DNA from: a virus
Lineage: Duplodnaviria; Heunggongvirae; Uroviricota; Caudoviricetes
DNA length: 38,430 nt
Direction: 5' to 3' (one strand)
IMG/VR virus record: IMGVR_UViG_2778261428_000003
Coordinates: 1-38,430 of that record
The position numbers were made by a program, and so were the translations under genes. This document shows positions 1-38,430 of this stretch, in pieces. The notes under the pieces were generated by a model that was given only the letters and a program-made list of their open reading frames with translations, ran no database searches and was not told the origin of the DNA. Position 1 is the stretch's first letter; every line of letters starts with the position of its first letter.

Positions 1-555
1 CTAATCCCTGCCTACAGGAAATTTTCGGTATAGTGTTGACACTCCTACATCATAAATTAATGCTACGCGCTGACACGTTTCTCCTGCAGCGATTAGTCTC
101 CCTGCCTGCGCCCACTGCTCATCCGTTAGTTTTGGCTTACGTCCACCAATTCGTCCCTGTGCGCGAGCAGCTTCCAGTCCAGCTTTTGTTCGTTCAACAA
201 TCAGTTCACGCTCCATTTCAGCCAGGGCACCCATCACATGAAAGAAAAAGCGCCCCATTGGGGTACTAGTATCAATTGAATCCGTCAGACTACGAAAGTT
301 GATGCCTCGTTCGCGCAACTCCTCAACCAGAATGACCAGATGCCGCATACTACGCCCCAGCCGATCCAGCTTCCAGACAACCAGAGTGTCACCTGCCGAT
401 AATGTCCTGAGCAGTTTTTTCAGTCCTGGCCTTTCGGACTTTGTACCGCTTATCTTGTCTTCAAAAATCAGCTCGCATCCTGCACAGTTCAGCGCATTAC
501 GTTGTAGATCTGTGTTCTGGTCATTTGTTGACACACGTACATAGCCAATAAGCAT
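1..555 (-). CDS. pin: Serine recombinase / DNA invertase (Hin/Gin/Pin family), 184 aa
   Basis: Translation MLIGYVRVSTNDQNTDLQ...GDTLVVWKLDRLGRS has the resolvase/invertase catalytic N-terminus and a C-terminal HTH; ATG at 553-555 (minus), stop TAG at 1-3; sits next to an inverted-repeat-flanked tail-fibre segment. Confidence 0.9.
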   Translation of the reverse strand: MLIGYVRVSTNDQNTDLQRNALNCAGCELIFEDKISGTKSERPGLKKLLRTLSAGDTLVVWKLDRLGRSMRHLVILVEELRERGINFRSLTDSIDTSTPMGRFFFHVMGALAEMERELIVERTKAGLEAARAQGRIGGRKPKLTDEQWAQAGRLIAAGETCQRVALIYDVGVSTLYRKFPVGRD

Positions 556-581
556 GGTAGATCTCCCTGACAAAAGCAGGA

Positions 582-974
582 ATGATGCCATTTGCTCGTT
601 ATTTCTGCATTTTCATAAACGTTGGTTTGGGAGAAGCGGCTAAAAGGAATGTAGGGACAGGGGCGAATCAGATACCTGATATGGGTAGCTTCACGCTTTC
701 TGTTTCAGGTACTGGATATCAAAAATTACCATCAGGTTTTATTCTTCAGTGGGGCTCAATCGGCGCACCAGGCATTGCACAGGATGTAGTAACCCATTTT
801 CCAATTGCATTTCCAAACAGATGTCTGCGTGTTTTGGTCTCACAAGACTACACACCAGATAGCGGGGCTGTTGGTTATATTGCCTGTGCAGGTTTTAGTC
901 CCGACCCGGTTAAATTTATATCCAGAGCCAGTACTCCAGGTCTCGGCGCTTCATTTTTAGCGTTAGGCTGTTAA
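582..974 (+). CDS. Alternative (currently silent) tail-fibre C-terminal segment; expressible only after inversion, effective segment about 624-974
   Basis: ORF reads through the left crossover site encoding N-V-G-L-G-E in the same frame as N-L-G-L-G-D of the expressed fibre; Gly-rich fibre-like sequence; followed by its own tfa gene. Confidence 0.55.
610..635. other. Left inversion crossover site (hix/gix-like 26-bp site)
   Basis: ttttcataAACGTTGGTTTgggagaa is an inverted copy of the site at 2478-2503; both share the core GGTTTGGGAGA. Confidence 0.6.
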
Positions 975-7841: not shown

Positions 7842-9677
7842 TTACCTGCCAAAGCGCGTATAGCCAACATCATGGCTGACATCAAAACCGCTGGATCGCG
7901 TTTCCATAACCCGCATACCCGGAGGCGAATTCACAAAAGAGACCTTGATCTCACCATCAACTTTTGGCGCAGAAGCTTTGTTAATCATGAAGGGGTTCGG
8001 GCCTGTGACATCGGAGGCGTTGTTTGACTGAGCCGGATCTACCGCCGGATAAGGTGTGTATCCCCGCGCAGGTATTCCCGTCCCATAAGCATCATAAGCA
8101 CCCGCGCCCCACTGCGCAGAGTTAATGGCATCGACCGTGTCACCGGAACTGTCGGTAAACCACTCAATAATTGGCTTCAGCTTGTCCCACATATCCTGAA
8201 ACCACTTAACAACCGGCCCCCAGTTATTGATCACCATCCCCAGCGGCGACCAGGCAAAAACTTTCTTAAGGAGTTCCCAGCCAGCCTCAAAATAAGGACC
8301 AATGGTTTCCCAGAGTTTCTTAAAATAAGGTCCGACAACATCCCAGTTAGTGATAATTAATCCCGCAGCCAGGGCTATCGCCGTCGCAATCATGCCAATC
8401 GGCGTCATCGACATGATCCTGCTGACAATACTGATGGCACCGCCAACACCCATCAATCCCAGTTTCAGAATCGCAAGACCGGCAGCAAGCCCGACGACGC
8501 CGCGAATAACCCGGGGATTTTCATCCGCAAACTTCGTGAATTTCTCCCCCAACTCCCCCAGCCATTGCGTGATATTTTTAGCGTCACCAGAAAATGCGCC
8601 GCCAATAGCCGCAAGGCCGTTAGTTGCGGTCCCTGTCATTGCCTCCCACAGGTTGGACAGCGTACCAAGCTGTGCCTGAACACGTTTATTCAGGCTGGCC
8701 TGTTTATTCATCTTCTGCTGGATCTGATCGTAGCCATCCTTTCCTTTATCGATTAGTGCATTGACCACCTGAAGGGTTTCGGCATCATCACCAAATATTG
8801 CCTTAAGTACACCTGTTCGCTTAACGTCGGTCAGTTTTCGCAGCTTTGCCAGTTGCCTGAACATGTTATCAAGACCGCCAAAACTTCCTTTGCCGTCAGT
8901 AAAATCGAGCTGTACCCCGAGTTTCTGGCGGGCCATAACTTTATTAACGTCCCTGATTTTCTTAACACTTAATCCGGACTGGATAACTTTTCGCAGTGCA
9001 TTACCTGCCGACTCCCCGTTCATCCCCATCTGATCCATCATGACGTTGATGGGGGCAAGGCTCTGTGCAGCCTGAAGACCGTCCTTGTTCACCATCTTCA
9101 GAACAGAACTGGTTTTAGTGAAGAAGGACAACATGTTGGTATCGTCAACGCCCAGATAAAACGCCTTCTGGATAGTGTCGAACAGCCCCATCATGTCTTC
9201 TGACGCCGTTCCGGTAGCATCCTGCATCTTTGCAGCAAACTCAGCAGCCGCTTCCGGTGTTTTTTTCAGTTGTACCGCAAGATAAGCTGTCGCTTTACCC
9301 ACACCACCCAGAATGTTTTCTGCCGGGATCCCCTGACGCACCAGCATCTGCATCATGTTCTGGAAATCAGCCGTTGTACCGGGTAGCTGGTTACCCAGGC
9401 CAATAGCCAGTTTGTTGATGTCCTGAAAGCTCTTTCCAACCTCGCCGTTCGCATCCATCATGGCGACTTTCAGCCCGGTGGCGGCGTTTTCCTGATCGGC
9501 ATAAGATTTCAGGGAAAGCGTCAGACCCGCTGCCAGTCCGCCACCAAGCGCCAGCCCACCCTGTGACGCTTCTTCCGCCTGGCGTTTAAATCCCCGGATT
9601 TTCTTTTGCATTTTCGACAGCGCGGGAGAAAGCCTGTCGACACCGGTGATCAACGCCTTAAGCTCAAATTCAGCCAT
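7842..9677 (-). CDS. Tail tape measure protein
   Basis: 611 aa, Ala/Gly-rich with hydrophobic segments, directly downstream of chaperone pair. Confidence 0.85.
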   Translation of the reverse strand: MAEFELKALITGVDRLSPALSKMQKKIRGFKRQAEEASQGGLALGGGLAAGLTLSLKSYADQENAATGLKVAMMDANGEVGKSFQDINKLAIGLGNQLPGTTADFQNMMQMLVRQGIPAENILGGVGKATAYLAVQLKKTPEAAAEFAAKMQDATGTASEDMMGLFDTIQKAFYLGVDDTNMLSFFTKTSSVLKMVNKDGLQAAQSLAPINVMMDQMGMNGESAGNALRKVIQSGLSVKKIRDVNKVMARQKLGVQLDFTDGKGSFGGLDNMFRQLAKLRKLTDVKRTGVLKAIFGDDAETLQVVNALIDKGKDGYDQIQQKMNKQASLNKRVQAQLGTLSNLWEAMTGTATNGLAAIGGAFSGDAKNITQWLGELGEKFTKFADENPRVIRGVVGLAAGLAILKLGLMGVGGAISIVSRIMSMTPIGMIATAIALAAGLIITNWDVVGPYFKKLWETIGPYFEAGWELLKKVFAWSPLGMVINNWGPVVKWFQDMWDKLKPIIEWFTDSSGDTVDAINSAQWGAGAYDAYGTGIPARGYTPYPAVDPAQSNNASDVTGPNPFMINKASAPKVDGEIKVSFVNSPPGMRVMETRSSGFDVSHDVGYTRFGR

Positions 9678-9852
9678 GTGTGCGTTTCTCCTGCTCTATC
9701 CTGTTTGCCTGACTGACCAGCAAGGGAATTTCACTGATCGGCATATTCAGCAATTCGAAGGGATTAATGCGCCAGTAGCTGGCGCAGTCAAAGAAGCGAT
9801 CAGTGAGGTATTCAGCCGTCAGGCCTGGAGGAAAAAACCAGCCACAAGCCAC
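9670..9852 (-). CDS. Tail assembly chaperone -1 frameshift extension (GT-like)
   Basis: ORF in the -1 frame overlapping the end of 9819..10088; slippery heptamer T_TTT_TTC at 9831-9837 (minus strand) 10 nt before the 0-frame stop. Confidence 0.5.
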   Translation of the reverse strand: MACGWFFPPGLTAEYLTDRFFDCASYWRINPFELLNMPISEIPLLVSQANRIEQEKRTHG

Positions 9853-10088
9853 GCCGCTGCATTCAGGTCTGCCGGAGACATCTGGTCGACAGAGCTTTGC
9901 GGCACTTTCGCCAGCCGCACAATGTATTTCGACACCACATGCGCCAGAAGTCTGACGGACTCATCCTGATTCATCTGGTAGGGATACCCCAGCTCGCGGA
10001 CATCCTTCCCGGTGGGTTCATCAAACTCCAGTACGGAGAGTGTCTCACCATGAGCGATAATCGGTTTCTTTAACTCAAGCTCTTTCAT
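9819..10088 (-). CDS. Tail assembly chaperone (G-like)
   Basis: 89 aa between tube and tape measure genes, the conserved chaperone position. Confidence 0.6.
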   Translation of the reverse strand: MKELELKKPIIAHGETLSVLEFDEPTGKDVRELGYPYQMNQDESVRLLAHVVSKYIVRLAKVPQSSVDQMSPADLNAAAWLVAGFFLQA

Positions 10089-10444
10089 TACTGGTAATCC
10101 CCTTCTTCACCGTGGAACTCAAGATCAACCGTGCCTTCTTCGGCATTATGGTTCGCTTCTCCGTGCAGCCAGGCGGACGACAATACATAGACCTGACCGT
10201 TCGCCAGCTCGGCAGTGATGGTCATCTCATCAGACGAGGTGATTTTACTCACCGGAAAATTCTTCGGCACCTTGAAGGTCCCTTTGACATAAGGCGCACG
10301 GTGAGTTTCCTTGCGGTCCACTGAACCGTCCAGGCCGATGATGTCATCATTGACCGTCCTGTTCATGGGCACCTCAATGCCGCCGGTCAGCGATAGCTGC
10401 TGACCGTCAATTTTGAAATAACAGGTTCCCCCGATACGGGCCAT
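10088..10444 (-). CDS. Tail tube protein (Mu gpM-like)
   Basis: 118 aa immediately after sheath gene. Confidence 0.7.
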   Translation of the reverse strand: MARIGGTCYFKIDGQQLSLTGGIEVPMNRTVNDDIIGLDGSVDRKETHRAPYVKGTFKVPKNFPVSKITSSDEMTITAELANGQVYVLSSAWLHGEANHNAEEGTVDLEFHGEEGDYQ

Positions 10445-11940
10445 TATGCAGACTCCTCTGAATACTGAAGACGGAACTGGTTAACCACGGCAAAGACACG
10501 CAACTGGTTAACATAGTCAGGCGGGAACAGCGTGTTCAGGCGGTTCGGATCGCTGGCATCACGCTCCACAACCAGGTACTGCTTAAACAGTTCGTAGTTT
10601 TCCACGATCCCCGCACGCTCAAGCTGACGGTAGGTTGCCAGCAGTTCCCCTTTGATTACCGCCGGGGTGACAATCGCCTGACCGGGACCAAAGCGGGTAC
10701 CGTCGCTGGCAAGCTTGTGACGCCCGTACTTACTGGTAATGACGGATTTCAGTTTGCGCAGTACATACGCACTGGTATGCAGCGTCTCGCTGTCGAGGTA
10801 GCTGTTATCCGCAACCCCGTAAGAATTTTTCCTGTACGTGGTGACATCACGCTGAATGCGCAGCACCCCGCTTTCGACATACGCCGTTGCCACGCCATGA
10901 GACAGCAGGGTCTGCTGCTCGGTCATCGTGAACCGTTTCCCCTTCGGCGCAGGCAGCATACCCACCAGCTCACCGGTCTGCGTGGGACGTGCCGGATCGT
11001 TGCGGATAAACACCGCTGCGCGGGCGGTACGGCTTGCCGCCAGCTCGTCGGCAGGCGTCTGGGTCTCTTTTTCGTACCCCGCCAGGGTGATGTGCTGCTG
11101 GTTAAACTGGTCACCTGCGTTCACCAGTTCTGACAGTGTGCCGGTCTTTGCCGTATACACATGACCATACAGCTGACGCGCATAGCTCCAGCGACCGCTG
11201 GTATCGTTCATCTCGGTCACCAGCGTGTTAACGGAGGCCGTGTCGTTGAACGGCAGACCGATATAATCAAACGGCTCATCCGCCATTGCAGCCACCGCGC
11301 CGGTGAGAACCGGAGCGCCCGTTCCGGCGGTCCCCGTCGCCACGGCAATCTGTACGCCCGCTGGCAGCACTTCGCCCCCACCGAAGCCGTAGTAATTGAG
11401 GCTGACAGGAATTTCATTCCCGCAAAGCCCCTTATGACGCGCGGTCAGCGTGACAACACCAGCCGAAGATGAAGCTGTAAACGGCAGAGTCGGAACGGCA
11501 TTGATGGCATCTTTGATACTGCTGGCAATCGTCGTGACGTTATCGCCGTTGGTCACCGGAGCCTGCACGCGGGTACGTCCCACATAGACATTCACCGTGC
11601 CGCTTTCGGTTGCTTCCCCGGTCACCGTCAGCGTAACCGTTGCCGCCGCGCCTGTGGCTTCCGGAACGGCAATCACATACAGCTCACCAAACGGATCGGT
11701 CTGGCGATAAGCCTCGACCATACGCGCCAGCTGACTTCCCGCACCACAAATCTGGCGTGCATAGTCTGCCGACGGCATCAGCACCAGACTGTTGGCAACA
11801 ATCTCTGCACCGTTATTGGCATGACCAATCAGCAGCGATGCTCCGCTGTCCTGTGCAGTATTCGCCGCCTGGTTATCCATTTCCGCATAAAACAGCGGAA
11901 CCAGCGTATTCGACGGAATGGTGTTAAAGCTTATCGTCAT
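10444..11940 (-). CDS. Contractile tail sheath protein (Mu gpL-like)
   Basis: 498 aa, sheath-like translation, followed by tube. Confidence 0.85.
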   Translation of the reverse strand: MTISFNTIPSNTLVPLFYAEMDNQAANTAQDSGASLLIGHANNGAEIVANSLVLMPSADYARQICGAGSQLARMVEAYRQTDPFGELYVIAVPEATGAAATVTLTVTGEATESGTVNVYVGRTRVQAPVTNGDNVTTIASSIKDAINAVPTLPFTASSSAGVVTLTARHKGLCGNEIPVSLNYYGFGGGEVLPAGVQIAVATGTAGTGAPVLTGAVAAMADEPFDYIGLPFNDTASVNTLVTEMNDTSGRWSYARQLYGHVYTAKTGTLSELVNAGDQFNQQHITLAGYEKETQTPADELAASRTARAAVFIRNDPARPTQTGELVGMLPAPKGKRFTMTEQQTLLSHGVATAYVESGVLRIQRDVTTYRKNSYGVADNSYLDSETLHTSAYVLRKLKSVITSKYGRHKLASDGTRFGPGQAIVTPAVIKGELLATYRQLERAGIVENYELFKQYLVVERDASDPNRLNTLFPPDYVNQLRVFAVVNQFRLQYSEESA

Positions 11941-34709: not shown

Positions 34710-34903
34710 TGAACAACTTAATGACAACTAAACAAGTCGCCGACTTCTGTGGCGTTTCAGTATCGACAGTTCTTCGCTGGAACAGCGTAAACCGGAGAAC
34801 TGGCCAGAAATACAGACCTGATTTTCCAGATCCTGATATTAAATCATGCCCAAATAAATGGGCGTCACGCAAGATTTACAGGTTTGCAGGAGTTATTGAA
34901 TGA
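34709..34903 (+). CDS. Excisionase / AlpA-like HTH regulator
   Basis: 64 aa, TTKQVADFCGVSVSTVLRW helix-turn-helix, upstream of integrase. Confidence 0.6.
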   Translation: MNNLMTTKQVADFCGVSVSTVLRWNSVNRRTGQKYRPDFPDPDIKSCPNKWASRKIYRFAGVIE

Positions 34904-35443
34904 CGTATGTGAACAGACACGTCTATGGCACGGTCAGCGTCTGTCTGAGCGATACAGGCACGGACGTTGCTATCCACAAGCATTAATTATCAGGAAACTG
35001 GGACCGCTCCCCAAGCATGATGTATTGAAACGAAGACATTTACACAATGATAGAAAAAATACTAAAATAATGATTCAACTCAAAGAGTTGATGTACATAA
35101 AATGCCTCACCGGCATAGGTGAACATTTTCATGGGTGGGGAAAAACATGATGTGGACCACACTTCCCCCTCTAAAAAGAGGGGAAAGAGTATGGTTTTGT
35201 TGTACACTAAAGGCCATATGGTTTTTTATTATGTTTGGATAAGATAAATGAATGTAATAGCATTTAATGAAATAGAATCTAGCATCGCCGCCAATGATCA
35301 GGTTGATTCTATCTGCATTGAATTAACAACATTTAATCAAGATAATGTCATTTCATTTGAAAGTAAAAAGAAAAATAAATAAATTCTTGATGCATTTTTT
35401 GAAATAATAAATACTGATATAGTTTTCGACTAGGTAATTAGCA

Positions 35444-37039
35444 ATGGCTGAAGCAGCAAAAAAAACTCCACAAAAGCTGAATGAAAAAAAAGGCTCAACA
35501 TCAGCATCATCACTTGAGATTGTGAATTCACGACAATCAAAAGATATTTATCTTGGATTGTGTGGATATGTTGGATGTGGCATGAGAACGATAAACAAAA
35601 TTATCGAAGAGATATCCAAAGAATGGGGGTATAATGTTGTACACATCCGCATAAGTGCGCTTATGGAAAACCCATTATATTTTGAGCCAGCAGCACTGGA
35701 GGTATCCGAAAGCACACAAGTTAATAGACATTTAAAACTCCAGGATATTGCCAATAAGCTTCGTAAACATTACAAAAAAAATGAGTTGCTTGCAGAAGCT
35801 GCTATTGCAGCAATCGCAGCAGAGAAAAATAATATTGATTATAATAATGATGAATATAAAGGTACTGTCTTCATCATTGATCAATTCAAAAGGCCGGAAG
35901 AAATAGAGTTATTCAGAGTTATATATCAGCATAATTTCTATTTATTAGGAGTTTTGCGCGATTTAGATTACCGAATTCCGAATCTCATTGCTGACGAATC
36001 GACAAAGGACGACCTTCATTTAATTATCAATATTGATAATAAATCCTCTGATCCGTATGGACAAAGAACCGGGGAAACCATTCTTGATTCAGATTTTTTT
36101 ATTAAAAATAACTTCAGCCAAAAAAGTGAATTAAAGAAGAAGATTGATCGGTTTTTCGGTCTTATTCATGGCAAAAATGGTTTAACACCAACTTTTAACG
36201 AGAAAGGTATGTATGCTGCCTTTTCAACATCATTACAATCAGCTTGTTTATCACGTCAAGTAGGGGCTGCACTGTTTGATGATGAAGGGAATTTGCTTGC
36301 CGTGGGTAAGAACGACGTACCTAAAGCTGGTGGCGGGTTGTATAGCAGTGATGATTTTGATAACGATCATCGATGCGTTCACAAAAGTGGTAAGTGTTAT
36401 AATGATGCAAACAAGCTAAAAATTAAAGACCGTATAAAAAGCATATTATCAACCGAAGTAAGAAATGTATTAGGTATTTCCGCAGGACAAACTGTTGCCG
36501 ATATTAATATAACACGACTTCTAAACAAATTAGATAATATTGCAGAAGGCATTTACAAAGACAGCAAAATATCAAGTGTAATGGAGTATTCCAGATCAAT
36601 TCATGCTGAAATGGACGTCATTACATCAATGGCTAGAAAACAAAACGGCGATACTAAAGATAAAATTCTTTTTACGACAACCTATCCCTGCCACAACTGT
36701 GCAAGGCATATTGTCGCAGCTGGAATAAAAAAAGTAGTATATATAGAGCCATTTGATAAAAGCCTTGCTCTTGATCTGCATAATGATGCAATAACAAAGA
36801 ACGAAGAATCATCCAAAGTAATATTTTGTGATTTTGAGGGGGTATCACCCCGCCGCTACCATAAATTTTTCAGACCAACGGATGAACGTAAAGATGATAA
36901 AACAGGGACTGCAAATAAATTTAATGCTCGCTACAAAAATCATATAGATGTTCAATATCTTGATGATTATAGAAAGTATGAGACTGTTGTAGCTAAGAAA
37001 TTTATAAACGAGATTGCTAAACCAGAGTCTCAGCCATAA
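35444..37039 (+). CDS. avcD: AvcD-like antiphage deaminase: N-terminal P-loop-like domain fused to C-terminal cytidine/dCMP deaminase domain
   Basis: Zinc-dependent deaminase signature H-A-E (aa 387-389, SIHAEMDVI) and P-C-x-x-C (aa 415-419, TYPCHNCARH); Gly-rich loop GLCGYVGCGMRT at aa 38-49; 531 aa; AT-rich; between xis and int. Confidence 0.8.
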   Translation: MAEAAKKTPQKLNEKKGSTSASSLEIVNSRQSKDIYLGLCGYVGCGMRTINKIIEEISKEWGYNVVHIRISALMENPLYFEPAALEVSESTQVNRHLKLQDIANKLRKHYKKNELLAEAAIAAIAAEKNNIDYNNDEYKGTVFIIDQFKRPEEIELFRVIYQHNFYLLGVLRDLDYRIPNLIADESTKDDLHLIINIDNKSSDPYGQRTGETILDSDFFIKNNFSQKSELKKKIDRFFGLIHGKNGLTPTFNEKGMYAAFSTSLQSACLSRQVGAALFDDEGNLLAVGKNDVPKAGGGLYSSDDFDNDHRCVHKSGKCYNDANKLKIKDRIKSILSTEVRNVLGISAGQTVADINITRLLNKLDNIAEGIYKDSKISSVMEYSRSIHAEMDVITSMARKQNGDTKDKILFTTTYPCHNCARHIVAAGIKKVVYIEPFDKSLALDLHNDAITKNEESSKVIFCDFEGVSPRRYHKFFRPTDERKDDKTGTANKFNARYKNHIDVQYLDDYRKYETVVAKKFINEIAKPESQP

Positions 37040-37191: not shown

Positions 37192-38430
37192 TTATTCAAT
37201 AGGCTGTCTGTTGGAACCTAAATTAGTGTAAGTAAGAATCGAATCAACCCTATCCCACCATGCCTGATAGGCTTTACGCTGTTCTTCTAGATAATCACTC
37301 TTATCATAAACTTGCCATACCCCTGGCAGTTTATGACCGAGCATTATTTCAGCAATATGAGGCGCAGTAAGATCAGAAAAGTTTGTTCGTGCTGTTCGTC
37401 TCAAATCATGAAGAGACCAATGAGGAAATTGATACCCCAAACGCCGCCATGCGTACTGCATTAAATTGTAAGGCAGCGACTGCAATGATGTCCGACCAAC
37501 TGGCTCCTTGCTTCCTTCCTTGGTAAAAAGCATATCGGAACCGTTGTTCATAGAGATAACGTATTTTATAAGCTCTTCAACCGGTTCAATAATGGGGCGC
37601 TTTAGCGGTTCGCCTGTTATATCACCTGTCTTATGTCGTTCTGGCGGTACAGTCCATACCTTATTAATGAAATCAAAATCATCCACCCTGGCAGTAATCA
37701 GCTCTGAACTACGACAGCCGAAATGCAGCAATAGTTTAATGAAGGCCCGGTATTTGGGAACCATTCGAGAACCATCGATCGCAGCATAAAGAATTTTAAT
37801 TTCATCGTGTGTCAGAAACCGTTTCTTCTGACCTTTACGGATATCCATATCTTTACCCGTGATGTCCGACAGCGGGCGAGTTTCAATAAACTTTCGCTTA
37901 TACGCCCAGACATGGGCCTGCTTTGCGTTAATTAGCAATCGGTCTGCTATTGCCGGAGTCTTAGTGCTAAGAGGCTCCAGGACCTCTAACCAATCATGCA
38001 ATGTAGCTGCATCATGAGGGATACTCCCGATTTTAGAGAACAGATGCAGTTCAAATGAGCGGAGTATCTGCTCAGAACCTTTTTTATTTTTTACACAATA
38101 TGCTTCATACCAGGCACGGATCACAGACTCTACCGTCATGGCTTCAGTAGCTTTGCGTTTTTCTGCCTGCCTGACCAATCGTGGATTGCGGTTTGACTCA
38201 AGTTCACCACGAAGACGGATAACTTCTTCTCTGGCCTCTTTTAATCCAGTTGCCGGGTAAGTTCCGATATCAAGTCGCTCGCCTTTCCCTGCCCATTGAT
38301 AACGATATTGGAACACTACGCGACCTTTCGGTGATACTCTGACAGACAGACCATCACGATCTGATTTAACCAAAACCTTATCGCGTTCCTTTCCAACGAC
38401 TGAACGCAACCACGCATCAGACAGCGCCAT
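37192..38430 (-). CDS. int: Tyrosine integrase, P4-type (N-terminal arm-binding DUF4102-like domain)
   Basis: 412 aa; C-terminal HDLRRT ... LGH ... Y catalytic motifs; ATG is the last three bases of the window. Confidence 0.9.
   Translation of the reverse strand: MALSDAWLRSVVGKERDKVLVKSDRDGLSVRVSPKGRVVFQYRYQWAGKGERLDIGTYPATGLKEAREEVIRLRGELESNRNPRLVRQAEKRKATEAMTVESVIRAWYEAYCVKNKKGSEQILRSFELHLFSKIGSIPHDAATLHDWLEVLEPLSTKTPAIADRLLINAKQAHVWAYKRKFIETRPLSDITGKDMDIRKGQKKRFLTHDEIKILYAAIDGSRMVPKYRAFIKLLLHFGCRSSELITARVDDFDFINKVWTVPPERHKTGDITGEPLKRPIIEPVEELIKYVISMNNGSDMLFTKEGSKEPVGRTSLQSLPYNLMQYAWRRLGYQFPHWSLHDLRRTARTNFSDLTAPHIAEIMLGHKLPGVWQVYDKSDYLEEQRKAYQAWWDRVDSILTYTNLGSNRQPIE

Follow-up and report, generated by a model that had tools for sequence, protein, structure and literature searches.

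The closest described systems are found in tailed phages whose tail assembly chaperone gene is decoded in two frames. In phage P2, a -1 frameshift at T_TTT_TTG joins the E and E' reading frames (Christie et al. 2002, as cited in PMC3091744). The P2 record NC_001895 annotates E with 91 aa, E+E' as a joined CDS of 142 aa, and a 'site of -1 translational frameshift'. As P2 is summarised in PMC3091744, this site is reported without a downstream structure. In phage lambda, the G/GT pair arises from a -1 frameshift at G_GGA_AAG (Levin et al. 1993; Xu, Hendrix & Duda 2004, 2013, 2014, as covered in PMC5009743), and in Mu the extension of gp41 is reached via a -2 frameshift (Xu et al. 2004, as cited in PMC2628397 and PMC5009743).

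We analysed a 38,430-nt stretch of Caudoviricetes DNA (the window) and identified it as an SfV-type Shigella/E. coli prophage. Its tail assembly chaperone ORF very probably ends in a G/GT-type (P2 E/E+E') site of programmed -1 ribosomal frameshifting. The genes and elements around this site are as follows.

10444-11940, minus strand: tail sheath gene
10088-10444, minus strand: tail tube gene, 118 aa (Pfam Tail_tube, 2.4e-33; phrog_185), whose stop overlaps the chaperone ATG
9819-10088, minus strand: chaperone ORF 'G', 89 aa, the 0-frame product, ending in AGFFLQA and the stop (Pfam PF10109, Phage_TAC_7)
9837-9831, minus strand: slippery heptamer T_TTT_TTC (in GGT TTT TTC), in the X_XXY_YYZ phase of the chaperone ORF
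9821-9819, minus strand: 0-frame stop TGA, 9 nt past the heptamer and within the 5' arm of a predicted base helix
9670-9831, minus strand: -1 frame extension 'T', 53 codons plus TGA, with the peptide PPGLTAEYLTDRFFDCASYWRINPFELLNMPISEIPLLVSQANRIEQEKRTHG (phrog_32181, E = 4e-40)
9670-10088, minus strand: predicted G-T fusion, 139 aa, made of codons 1-86 in frame 0, a -1 slip on T_TTT_TTC and 53 further codons
7842-9677, minus strand: tape measure protein gene, 611 aa (Pfam PhageMin_Tail, 1.4e-26; phrog tape measure families)

The gene order is sheath, tube, chaperone, -1 extension and tape measure, followed by Mu-type N, P, gp45, gp46 and baseplate J, and the structural genes on the minus strand also include the terminase and an HK97-type capsid gene. 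Two overlapping ORFs thus lie between the tube and tape measure genes, the arrangement of G/GT-type pairs. The 89-aa ORF matches PF10109 with 55.3 bits (cut-off 25) and E = 6.8e-15, residues 4-86 aligning to positions 2-78 of the 79 in the profile. This family is described as 'tail assembly chaperone proteins, E, or 41 or 14', and the PGAP name for the ORF is 'phage tail assembly protein'. Both the gene order and the PF10109 match therefore support the identity as a tail assembly chaperone that had been proposed in the first-pass annotation. The nearest phages are Shigella SfII, SfI and SfV and Escherichia vB_EcoM-689R6, with 98.7-99.7% DNA identity over the kilobase tested, and the same kilobase was matched in 1099 of 5426 complete E. 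coli genomes. We found no promoter-like or terminator-like pattern in 9500-10200, and a search of Rfam with 9550-9950 gave no family, the only match being a sub-threshold one to a CRISPR repeat.

Read on the minus strand, the end of the chaperone ORF is GCG TGG CTT GTG GCT GGT TTT TTC CTC CAG GCC TGA, and this reading confirms both the ORF end and the in-phase T_TTT_TTC at 9831-9837 given by the first-pass annotation. The distance from heptamer to stop had been put at 10 nt and is corrected here to 9 nt, the three codons CTC CAG GCC. The -1 frame had been said to continue for 60 codons to 9670; the end point at 9670 holds, while the length past the shift is 53 codons plus the stop, the figure of 60 being the length of a mechanical -1 ORF that begins farther upstream, at GTG 9852. 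After a -1 slip the codons are CCT CCA GGC CTG ACG GCT GAA TAC CTC, and the junction would accordingly read AGFF/PPGLTAEYL, as in the junction peptide named earlier. The predicted fusion junction peptide is AGFFPPGLTAEYL, and the tryptic peptide across it, VPQSSVDQMSPADLNAAAWLVAGFFPPGLTAEYLTDR, is long. The T stop TGA at 9672-9670 overlaps the tape measure ATG at 9677-9675 (ATGGCTGA). The fusion of 139 aa is predicted from these frames, and the PHROGs family matched by its T peptide, phrog_32181, is described there as of 'unknown function'.

The first-pass annotation had likened the site to both P2 E/E+E' and lambda G/GT. With P2 the site itself aligns. P2 has GTC GGT TTT TTG where the window has GCT GGT TTT TTC, and the common GGTTTTTT core lies at the same -GF- position at the end of the same Pfam domain (PF10109). 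The P2 products are of 91 and 142 aa and those of the window of 89 and (predicted) 139 aa, and in both phages the fusion ends in a stop that overlaps the tape measure start, which is the start of gene T in P2. Both also have the myovirus operon order of sheath, tube, chaperone and tape measure. On the strength of the common core, domain, product sizes and stop/start overlap, we regard the window site as the positional homologue of the experimentally established P2 site. The G part is homologous with P2 E and Mu gp41.

The two sites are nevertheless not identical. The last heptamer base is C or T in the SfV-type family and G in P2, so that the A-site codon in the SfV-type family is Phe UUC/UUU. 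The extension has diverged as well. None of seven diverse T peptides matched PF06528 (Phage_P2_GpE, the P2 E' domain) at E <= 10, whereas P2 E' itself, as positive control, scored 78.7 bits (2e-22); a profile of 14 T peptides could be aligned in register with P2 E', but the similarity was weak (P = 0.004, hhalign probability 9%). In addition, the rest of the tail module of the window is Mu-like, not P2-like, and a downstream structure is a candidate in the SfV/SfII lineage and is reported to be absent in P2.

The comparison with lambda holds by function and position only. Lambda likewise has two overlapping ORFs between the major tail and tape measure genes and a low-level -1 slip near the end of the first, and the presumed functions are alike, with G binding the tape measure and T recruiting the tube subunit (PMC5009743). 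Lambda differs in its heptamer and in the tRNAs involved, and it is a siphovirus; the lambda G:GT ratio of about 30:1, for which PMC5009743 also gives a frameshift efficiency 2-3 fold higher in P2, may not apply to the window.

Mu homologues surround the window site, namely sheath L, tube M, the DNA circularisation protein N, P, gp45, gp46 and baseplate J, and Mu is otherwise the named phage with the closest tail gene homologues. PF10109 includes Mu gp41, which is longer (144 aa). The T profile aligned weakly with the Mu extension (P = 4e-4 over 27 columns). However, the Mu extension lies in the +1/-2 frame, open for 130 nt beyond the stop and in keeping with the -2 shift described for Mu (PMC2628397, PMC5009743), while the +1 frame of the window closes 7 nt past the stop and the conserved extension is in the -1 frame, which is not the frame of a Mu-type -2 frameshift. 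Taken together, the Mu-like tail genes and the -1 frame extension indicate a module that is Mu-like with a P2-like slip site. A PDB sequence search with the fusion returned only repeated weak matches to a light-harvesting-complex motif, which we attribute to chance since their per-domain E-values were above 10.

Conservation was followed in relatives of the window. A degenerate-pattern scan, with one genome kept per species, gave 20 loci with 100% to 38% G identity to the window; five phage records (ST64B, SfIV, phiP27, Burkholderia phage BgVeeders33 and Pantoea phage AH07) were added as more distant relatives, and the comparison set comprised 23 non-redundant loci. These span Shigella, Edwardsiella, Citrobacter, Pantoea, Kosakonia and Derxia as well as ST64B, SfIV, phiP27 and the Burkholderia phage. 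Where the PF10109 domain ends, on the aligned FF motif, all 23 have T_TTT_TTC or T_TTT_TTT in phase. In all of them the -1 frame is also open from the heptamer to the tape measure start, where the T stop and the tape measure start overlap or abut in junctions such as ATGGCTGA, TAATG, TGACATG and TGAATG. The G/GT-type arrangement is therefore kept in 23 of 23 loci despite divergence of G down to 38% identity. The T peptide has the consensus FDCAxYWRINPLELL...QANRI, in which A, W, P, A, R and I are invariant, and the -1 frame peptide upstream of the heptamer is not conserved. The distance from the heptamer to the 0-frame stop shifts among the loci (9, 24, 27, 30, 42 or 63 nt), and the stop is therefore not part of the conserved signal. 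A scan of viral contigs gave 80 loci, all with the heptamer; since the G proteins of these contigs are 100% identical to the query, they were used only as a polymorphism sample. Three database proteins that look like natural in-frame G-T fusions (P0001-P0003, 137-139 aa, covering the whole fusion) were set aside as indel artefacts and are not counted as evidence, because their frames change at differing, non-homologous points in low-coverage contigs (coverage 2.4).

The codon usage of G bears on the level at which the heptamer is conserved. We compared 27 columns of G in which one degenerate amino acid is present in at least 85% of loci; 24 of them use 2-5 codons, and the major codon has a median share of 0.60. 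Just two of the 27 keep to a single codon, namely the heptamer Gly (GGT in 20 of 20) and the first heptamer Phe (TTT in 23 of 23). The second heptamer Phe is TTC (19) or TTT (4) only, and either keeps the site slippery. Where Gly is replaced, in three phages, the codon is AAT (ST64B) or CGT (SfIV and phiP27), with T still the last base. These patterns show selection on the heptamer nucleotides themselves. Part of the conservation is at the protein level, since a GFF protein motif overlaps the heptamer, but the codon analysis argues that protein-level conservation does not explain all of it.

Transcriptional slippage could in principle use the same run. RNA polymerase would add a U on the T6 stretch, and T7 mRNAs would encode the fusion without any slip of the ribosome. 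We consider this very unlikely, although it survives better than the other alternatives. The site is indeed a homopolymer, T6 in the window and T7 in L020/L021, ST64B, SfIV and phiP27, and one added base would change the frame in the same way and yield almost the same protein. Productive transcriptional slippage in bacteria generally involves runs of about 9 or more A/T. Such slippage is reviewed in PMC5009743; the run here is only T6, and at most T7 in the 23 loci, which is short of a long homopolymer. Moreover, the codon phase is always X_XXY_YYZ in the 23 diverged loci, an argument that is weakened by the conservation of GFF as protein, and for the homologous site of P2 the annotation names a translational -1 shift. 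In favour of this reading, E. coli has fewer UUUUUUU heptamers than expected in each of the three phases, for which transcriptional slippage is a possible cause (PMC4066793).

It is less probable still that no recoding takes place, with the run and the open frame being relics, the 89-aa protein made alone, and 141 nt left as an untranslated spacer before the tape measure gene. Such a reading agrees with the RefSeq/PGAP records examined (including SfV, SfII and SfI), in all of which the stretch is unannotated, and with the low basal efficiency of UUUUUUC (PMC4066793). The substitution pattern argues against it. Variable sites in the extension are distributed over -1 frame codon positions 1, 2 and 3 as 28, 18 and 39 of 48, a 3-periodic variability, and the Nei-Gojobori dN/dS of the extension is 0.136 in the -1 frame as compared with 1.34 in the 0 frame and 1.12 in the +1 frame; G itself has a dN/dS of 0.076. 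As estimated from these alignments, the ratios show purifying selection acting on the -1 frame. A dN/dS of 0.14 in exactly one frame, together with a frame that is open in 23 of 23 loci and ends on the next start codon each time, is not what would be expected of an untranslated spacer.

Initiation within the -1 frame was considered as well. In 15 of the 23 loci, the -1 frame is free of ATG, GTG and TTG from its upstream stop to 45 nt past the heptamer. The remaining eight have a single -1 frame start codon, which in seven is an NTG at -15, a by-product of the 0-frame Trp codon TGG, and none of the eight has an SD-like sequence before it. As is typical of G/GT-type pairs, the downstream ORF is without a start of its own in the window and in those 15 relatives. 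A separate small gene, namely the 60-aa 'hypothetical protein' from GTG 9852 that is annotated in Escherichia phage vB_EcoM-689R6, is accordingly the least probable reading: it can point to its own PHROGs family (phrog_32181) and to a GTG 15 nt upstream of the heptamer in the window, but this GTG is not preceded by an SD-like sequence, most relatives have no start codon ahead of the conserved peptide, several of them have a -1 frame that becomes open just 15-30 nt before the heptamer, the NTG at -15 derives from the 0-frame Trp codon TGG, and the -1 frame peptide preceding the heptamer is not conserved.

Given the codon usage, the dN/dS ratios and the start-codon tests, the extension is a real coding sequence, and the only way into it leads from G through a -1 shift at the heptamer. 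The programmed -1 frameshift proposed in the first-pass annotation is thus upheld by the conservation of the heptamer, the dN/dS of the -1 frame and the missing independent start. The heptamer alone is not significant, as there are about 48 in-phase X_XXY_YYZ heptamers across the window in 53 greedily chosen ORFs, and a 53-codon open frame would arise by chance at roughly (61/64)^53 = 0.08. What goes beyond chance is the combination of the position at the chaperone end, the -1 frame that ends on the next start and, above all, the conservation in diverged relatives. Elsewhere in the window, a second near-stop heptamer, G_GGA_AAA at 35138-35144, lies in an AT-rich stretch in a TTG-start ORF without a family match and was judged to be due to chance.

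The phenomenon is a textbook one; the site is new, or at least unannotated in the inspected records. No joined CDS or slippage note was found in the records of SfV, vB_EcoM-689R6, SfIV, ST64B, phiP27, BgVeeders33 and AH07 or in one PGAP E. coli chromosome, and the SfII and SfI feature lists contain no fusion product. The word 'frameshift' is absent from the SfI and SfIV genome papers, and among the papers covered by the literature search none ties TTTTTTC to the tail chaperone in the SfV-type group. Specialists are unlikely to be surprised by the site. However, the group covers the Shigella flexneri serotype-converting phages SfV, SfII, SfI and SfIV, Salmonella ST64B and the Stx phage phiP27, and an essential-looking tail assembly product is missing from the inspected records, where it is replaced by a 141-nt 'intergenic' gap or a separate hypothetical protein. 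Recognition of the fusion would give phrog_32181 a function, and annotation pipelines could add a ribosomal-slippage rule for a PF10109 gene with a T-type extension. The site also shows that a P2-type -1 signal can be combined with a tail module of Mu type, while Mu itself uses a -2 shift.

In a programmed -1 frameshift at this site, most ribosomes would make the 89-aa chaperone and terminate at the TGA at 9821-9819. A minority would slip one base back, the P-site tRNA-Phe on UUU and the A-site tRNA-Phe on UUC re-pairing to UUU UUU. Tandem slippage of two tRNA-Phe from UUU UUC to UUU UUU is the standard model. The slipped ribosomes would then read CCU CCA GGC and onwards for 53 codons and end at the TGA overlapping the tape measure ATG, giving the 139-aa fusion. 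By analogy with lambda and P2, the G part common to both products would bind the tape measure protein, and the T part would recruit the tube protein and nucleate its polymerisation. Tube and sheath would then polymerise around the tape measure at a fixed G:GT ratio, with neither G nor GT retained in the virion. Slippage itself, its rate, the way in which G and T share the work and whatever part the downstream stem-loop may play are inferred here.

Reporter data from E. coli give an indication of how such heptamers behave. According to Sharma et al. (PMC4066793), H_HH.U_UU.Y is among the most efficient heptamer classes in E. coli. Table S3 of that study lists -1 frameshift rates in three settings, namely no stimulator, the IS911 stimulator and the IS3 pseudoknot; in this order they are 0.12%, 0.89% and 7.6% for UUUUUUC, 0.33%, 0.45% and 10.2% for UUUUUUU, and 0.12%, 0.25% and 0.77% for the UUUUUUG of P2. 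UUUUUUC is thus about 10-fold more stimulator-responsive than the P2 heptamer (7.6% vs 0.77%), and on these rates the UUUUUUC and UUUUUUU heptamers of the SfV-type family are the stimulator-responsive ones. Since about 0.12% without a stimulator is near background for UUUUUUC, a useful level would need context effects or a stimulator. The relatives provide a natural series for the study of the G:GT ratio, with UUUUUUC or UUUUUUU, different stop distances, and a stem present or absent.

A downstream stem-loop was among the features that the first-pass annotation had suggested looking for. We found a predicted fold with the elements listed below.

9824-9707, minus strand: candidate stimulatory stem-loop of about 118 nt, beginning 6 nt 3' of the heptamer and wholly in T coding sequence
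9824-9814 with 9718-9707, minus strand: predicted base helix GCCUGAC/GUCAGGC, which holds the 0-frame UGA
9806-9797 with 9740-9731, minus strand: predicted middle helix of 10 bp, CACUGAUCG/CGAUCAGUG
9791-9764, minus strand: predicted apical hairpin within the stem-loop
9768-9786, minus strand: 8-bp hairpin tip UGCGCCAG-CUA-CUGGCGCA, with an invariant stem and a loop base that varies

The 138 nt from the heptamer on are predicted to form one long irregular stem-loop with an MFE of -46.9 kcal/mol and a z-score of -4.0 to -4.5; in the run with z = -4.2, 0 of 200 shuffles were as stable. Against 247 segments of equal length from the same strand of the 17-kb operon, it ranks first by z-score (background mean -0.62, SD 1.08, minimum -3.86); its raw energy is ordinary, 34% of the segments being at least as stable. 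The base helix is kept in close relatives, with a spacer of 5-6 nt and z of -1.9 to -6.3. In ten ungapped sequences, 85% of cells pair and nine pairs have changed on both sides, a number matched by 7 of 500 shuffles; the covariation score was 0.120, as compared with 0.086, and 2 of 500 shuffles attained it. In the sample of 80 near-identical viral contigs, five of the six polymorphic fold sites are unpaired (binomial p ~0.04), including the loop base at position 60 in the apical hairpin, which is the commonest polymorphism. The association of synonymous invariance with pairing was not significant (Fisher p = 0.20). RNAalifold with 18 sequences kept only four pairs, all in the apical hairpin, with essentially no covariation, and the long stem is therefore not family-wide. 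Distant relatives fold differently (z +0.9 to -4.2), and the stem-loop is absent there.

The search thus bore out the suggestion as far as a predicted fold, a 6-nt spacer and a z-score of about -4 are concerned, whereas covariation support is weak and the fold is lineage-specific. The stem-loop is a plausible lineage-specific stimulator, with a chance of being one that we put at even or somewhat lower, and not an established part of the signal. It is possible, if on balance doubtful, that in the SfV/SfII lineage a long-range stem-loop burying the 0-frame stop boosts the frameshift, unlike at the P2 site, which is reported to be bare. If true, the G:GT ratio would be tunable through RNA structure, and the stem-loop would explain the presence of UUUUUUC/U here instead of the UUUUUUG of P2.

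The candidate can also be compared with the signals of dnaX, IS911 and IS3, in which an X_XXY_YYZ heptamer is likewise present, combined with an SD-like element upstream, a hairpin or pseudoknot downstream, or both; U_UUU_UUC is used by IS elements (PMC4066793). The predicted structure 6 nt downstream is at the usual spacing of 5-9 nt. Unlike those signals, the window lacks an upstream SD-like element, with no GGAG, GAGG or AGGA in its GCGGCGTGGCTTGTGGCTGG segment 6-17 nt upstream of the heptamer, and the candidate structure, a long-range irregular stem, differs from their compact hairpins and pseudoknots. Among the relatives, L018 carries GGAGGTG upstream of its heptamer.

We found that the peptide encoded by T, the 53 codons that extend the tail assembly chaperone gene G in the -1 frame, is matched (E = 4e-40) by phrog_32181, a PHROGs family of 63 positions annotated as "unknown function". 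This family is the chaperone's -1 frame extension called as a stand-alone ORF, and as a family it is an annotation artefact caused by unrecognised frameshifting.

The public protein collection also contains "fused" or oddly extended versions of the chaperone, 107-139 aa in length (P0001-P0006; loci L004 and L005), which could be misread as natural G-T fusions. The frame changes at a different place in each, and these proteins result from indels in contigs of low coverage, drawn from metagenomes or from Logan.

Downstream of the slippery heptamer T_TTT_TTC, a hairpin lies inside T, over codons C-A-S-Y-W-R:

9768-9786, minus strand, perfect 8-bp hairpin UGCGCCAG-CUA-CUGGCGCA

Every base of its stem is invariant among 10 diverged relatives, including four synonymous third positions, and the commonest polymorphism is the first loop base. 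This hairpin is 45 nt from the heptamer and is therefore too distant to be a frameshift stimulator acting alone. The related locus of Kosakonia pseudosacchari (L018:1737-1751) has a Shine-Dalgarno-like GGAGGTG, which ends approximately 6 nt upstream of that locus's own T_TTT_TTC and is absent at the equivalent position in the window. It may be a lineage-specific alternative upstream stimulator, of the same kind as the SD-like stimulators of dnaX and IS911.

A second heptamer near a stop was found elsewhere in the window:

34884-35150, 88-aa ORF with a TTG start and a 32-codon -1 extension
35138-35144, plus strand, G_GGA_AAA, 3 nt ahead of the ORF stop

This heptamer is probably a chance occurrence, since a family search with the ORF gave no match and the surrounding sequence is AT-rich and of non-coding appearance.

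At one end of the window, a serine invertase adjoins two tail-fibre genes:

1-591, minus strand, Hin/Gin-type serine invertase (Resolvase and HTH_7)
582-974 and 996-1436, opposite-strand ORFs
1408-2010, tail-fibre assembly gene
2010-2780, tail collar/fibre gene

The stretch 1-2780 looks like an invertible host-range segment for tail fibres, as in Mu G and P1 C.

A further gene adjoins the integrase in AT-rich surroundings:

35444-37039, plus strand, 531-aa gene
37192-38430, minus strand, integrase

The product of the 531-aa gene matches the PADLOC "dCTPase" defence model (E = 2.7e-164) and carries Pfam cytidine/dCMP deaminase domains. The gene is most likely an anti-phage defence gene of the dCTP-deaminase type, carried as prophage cargo.
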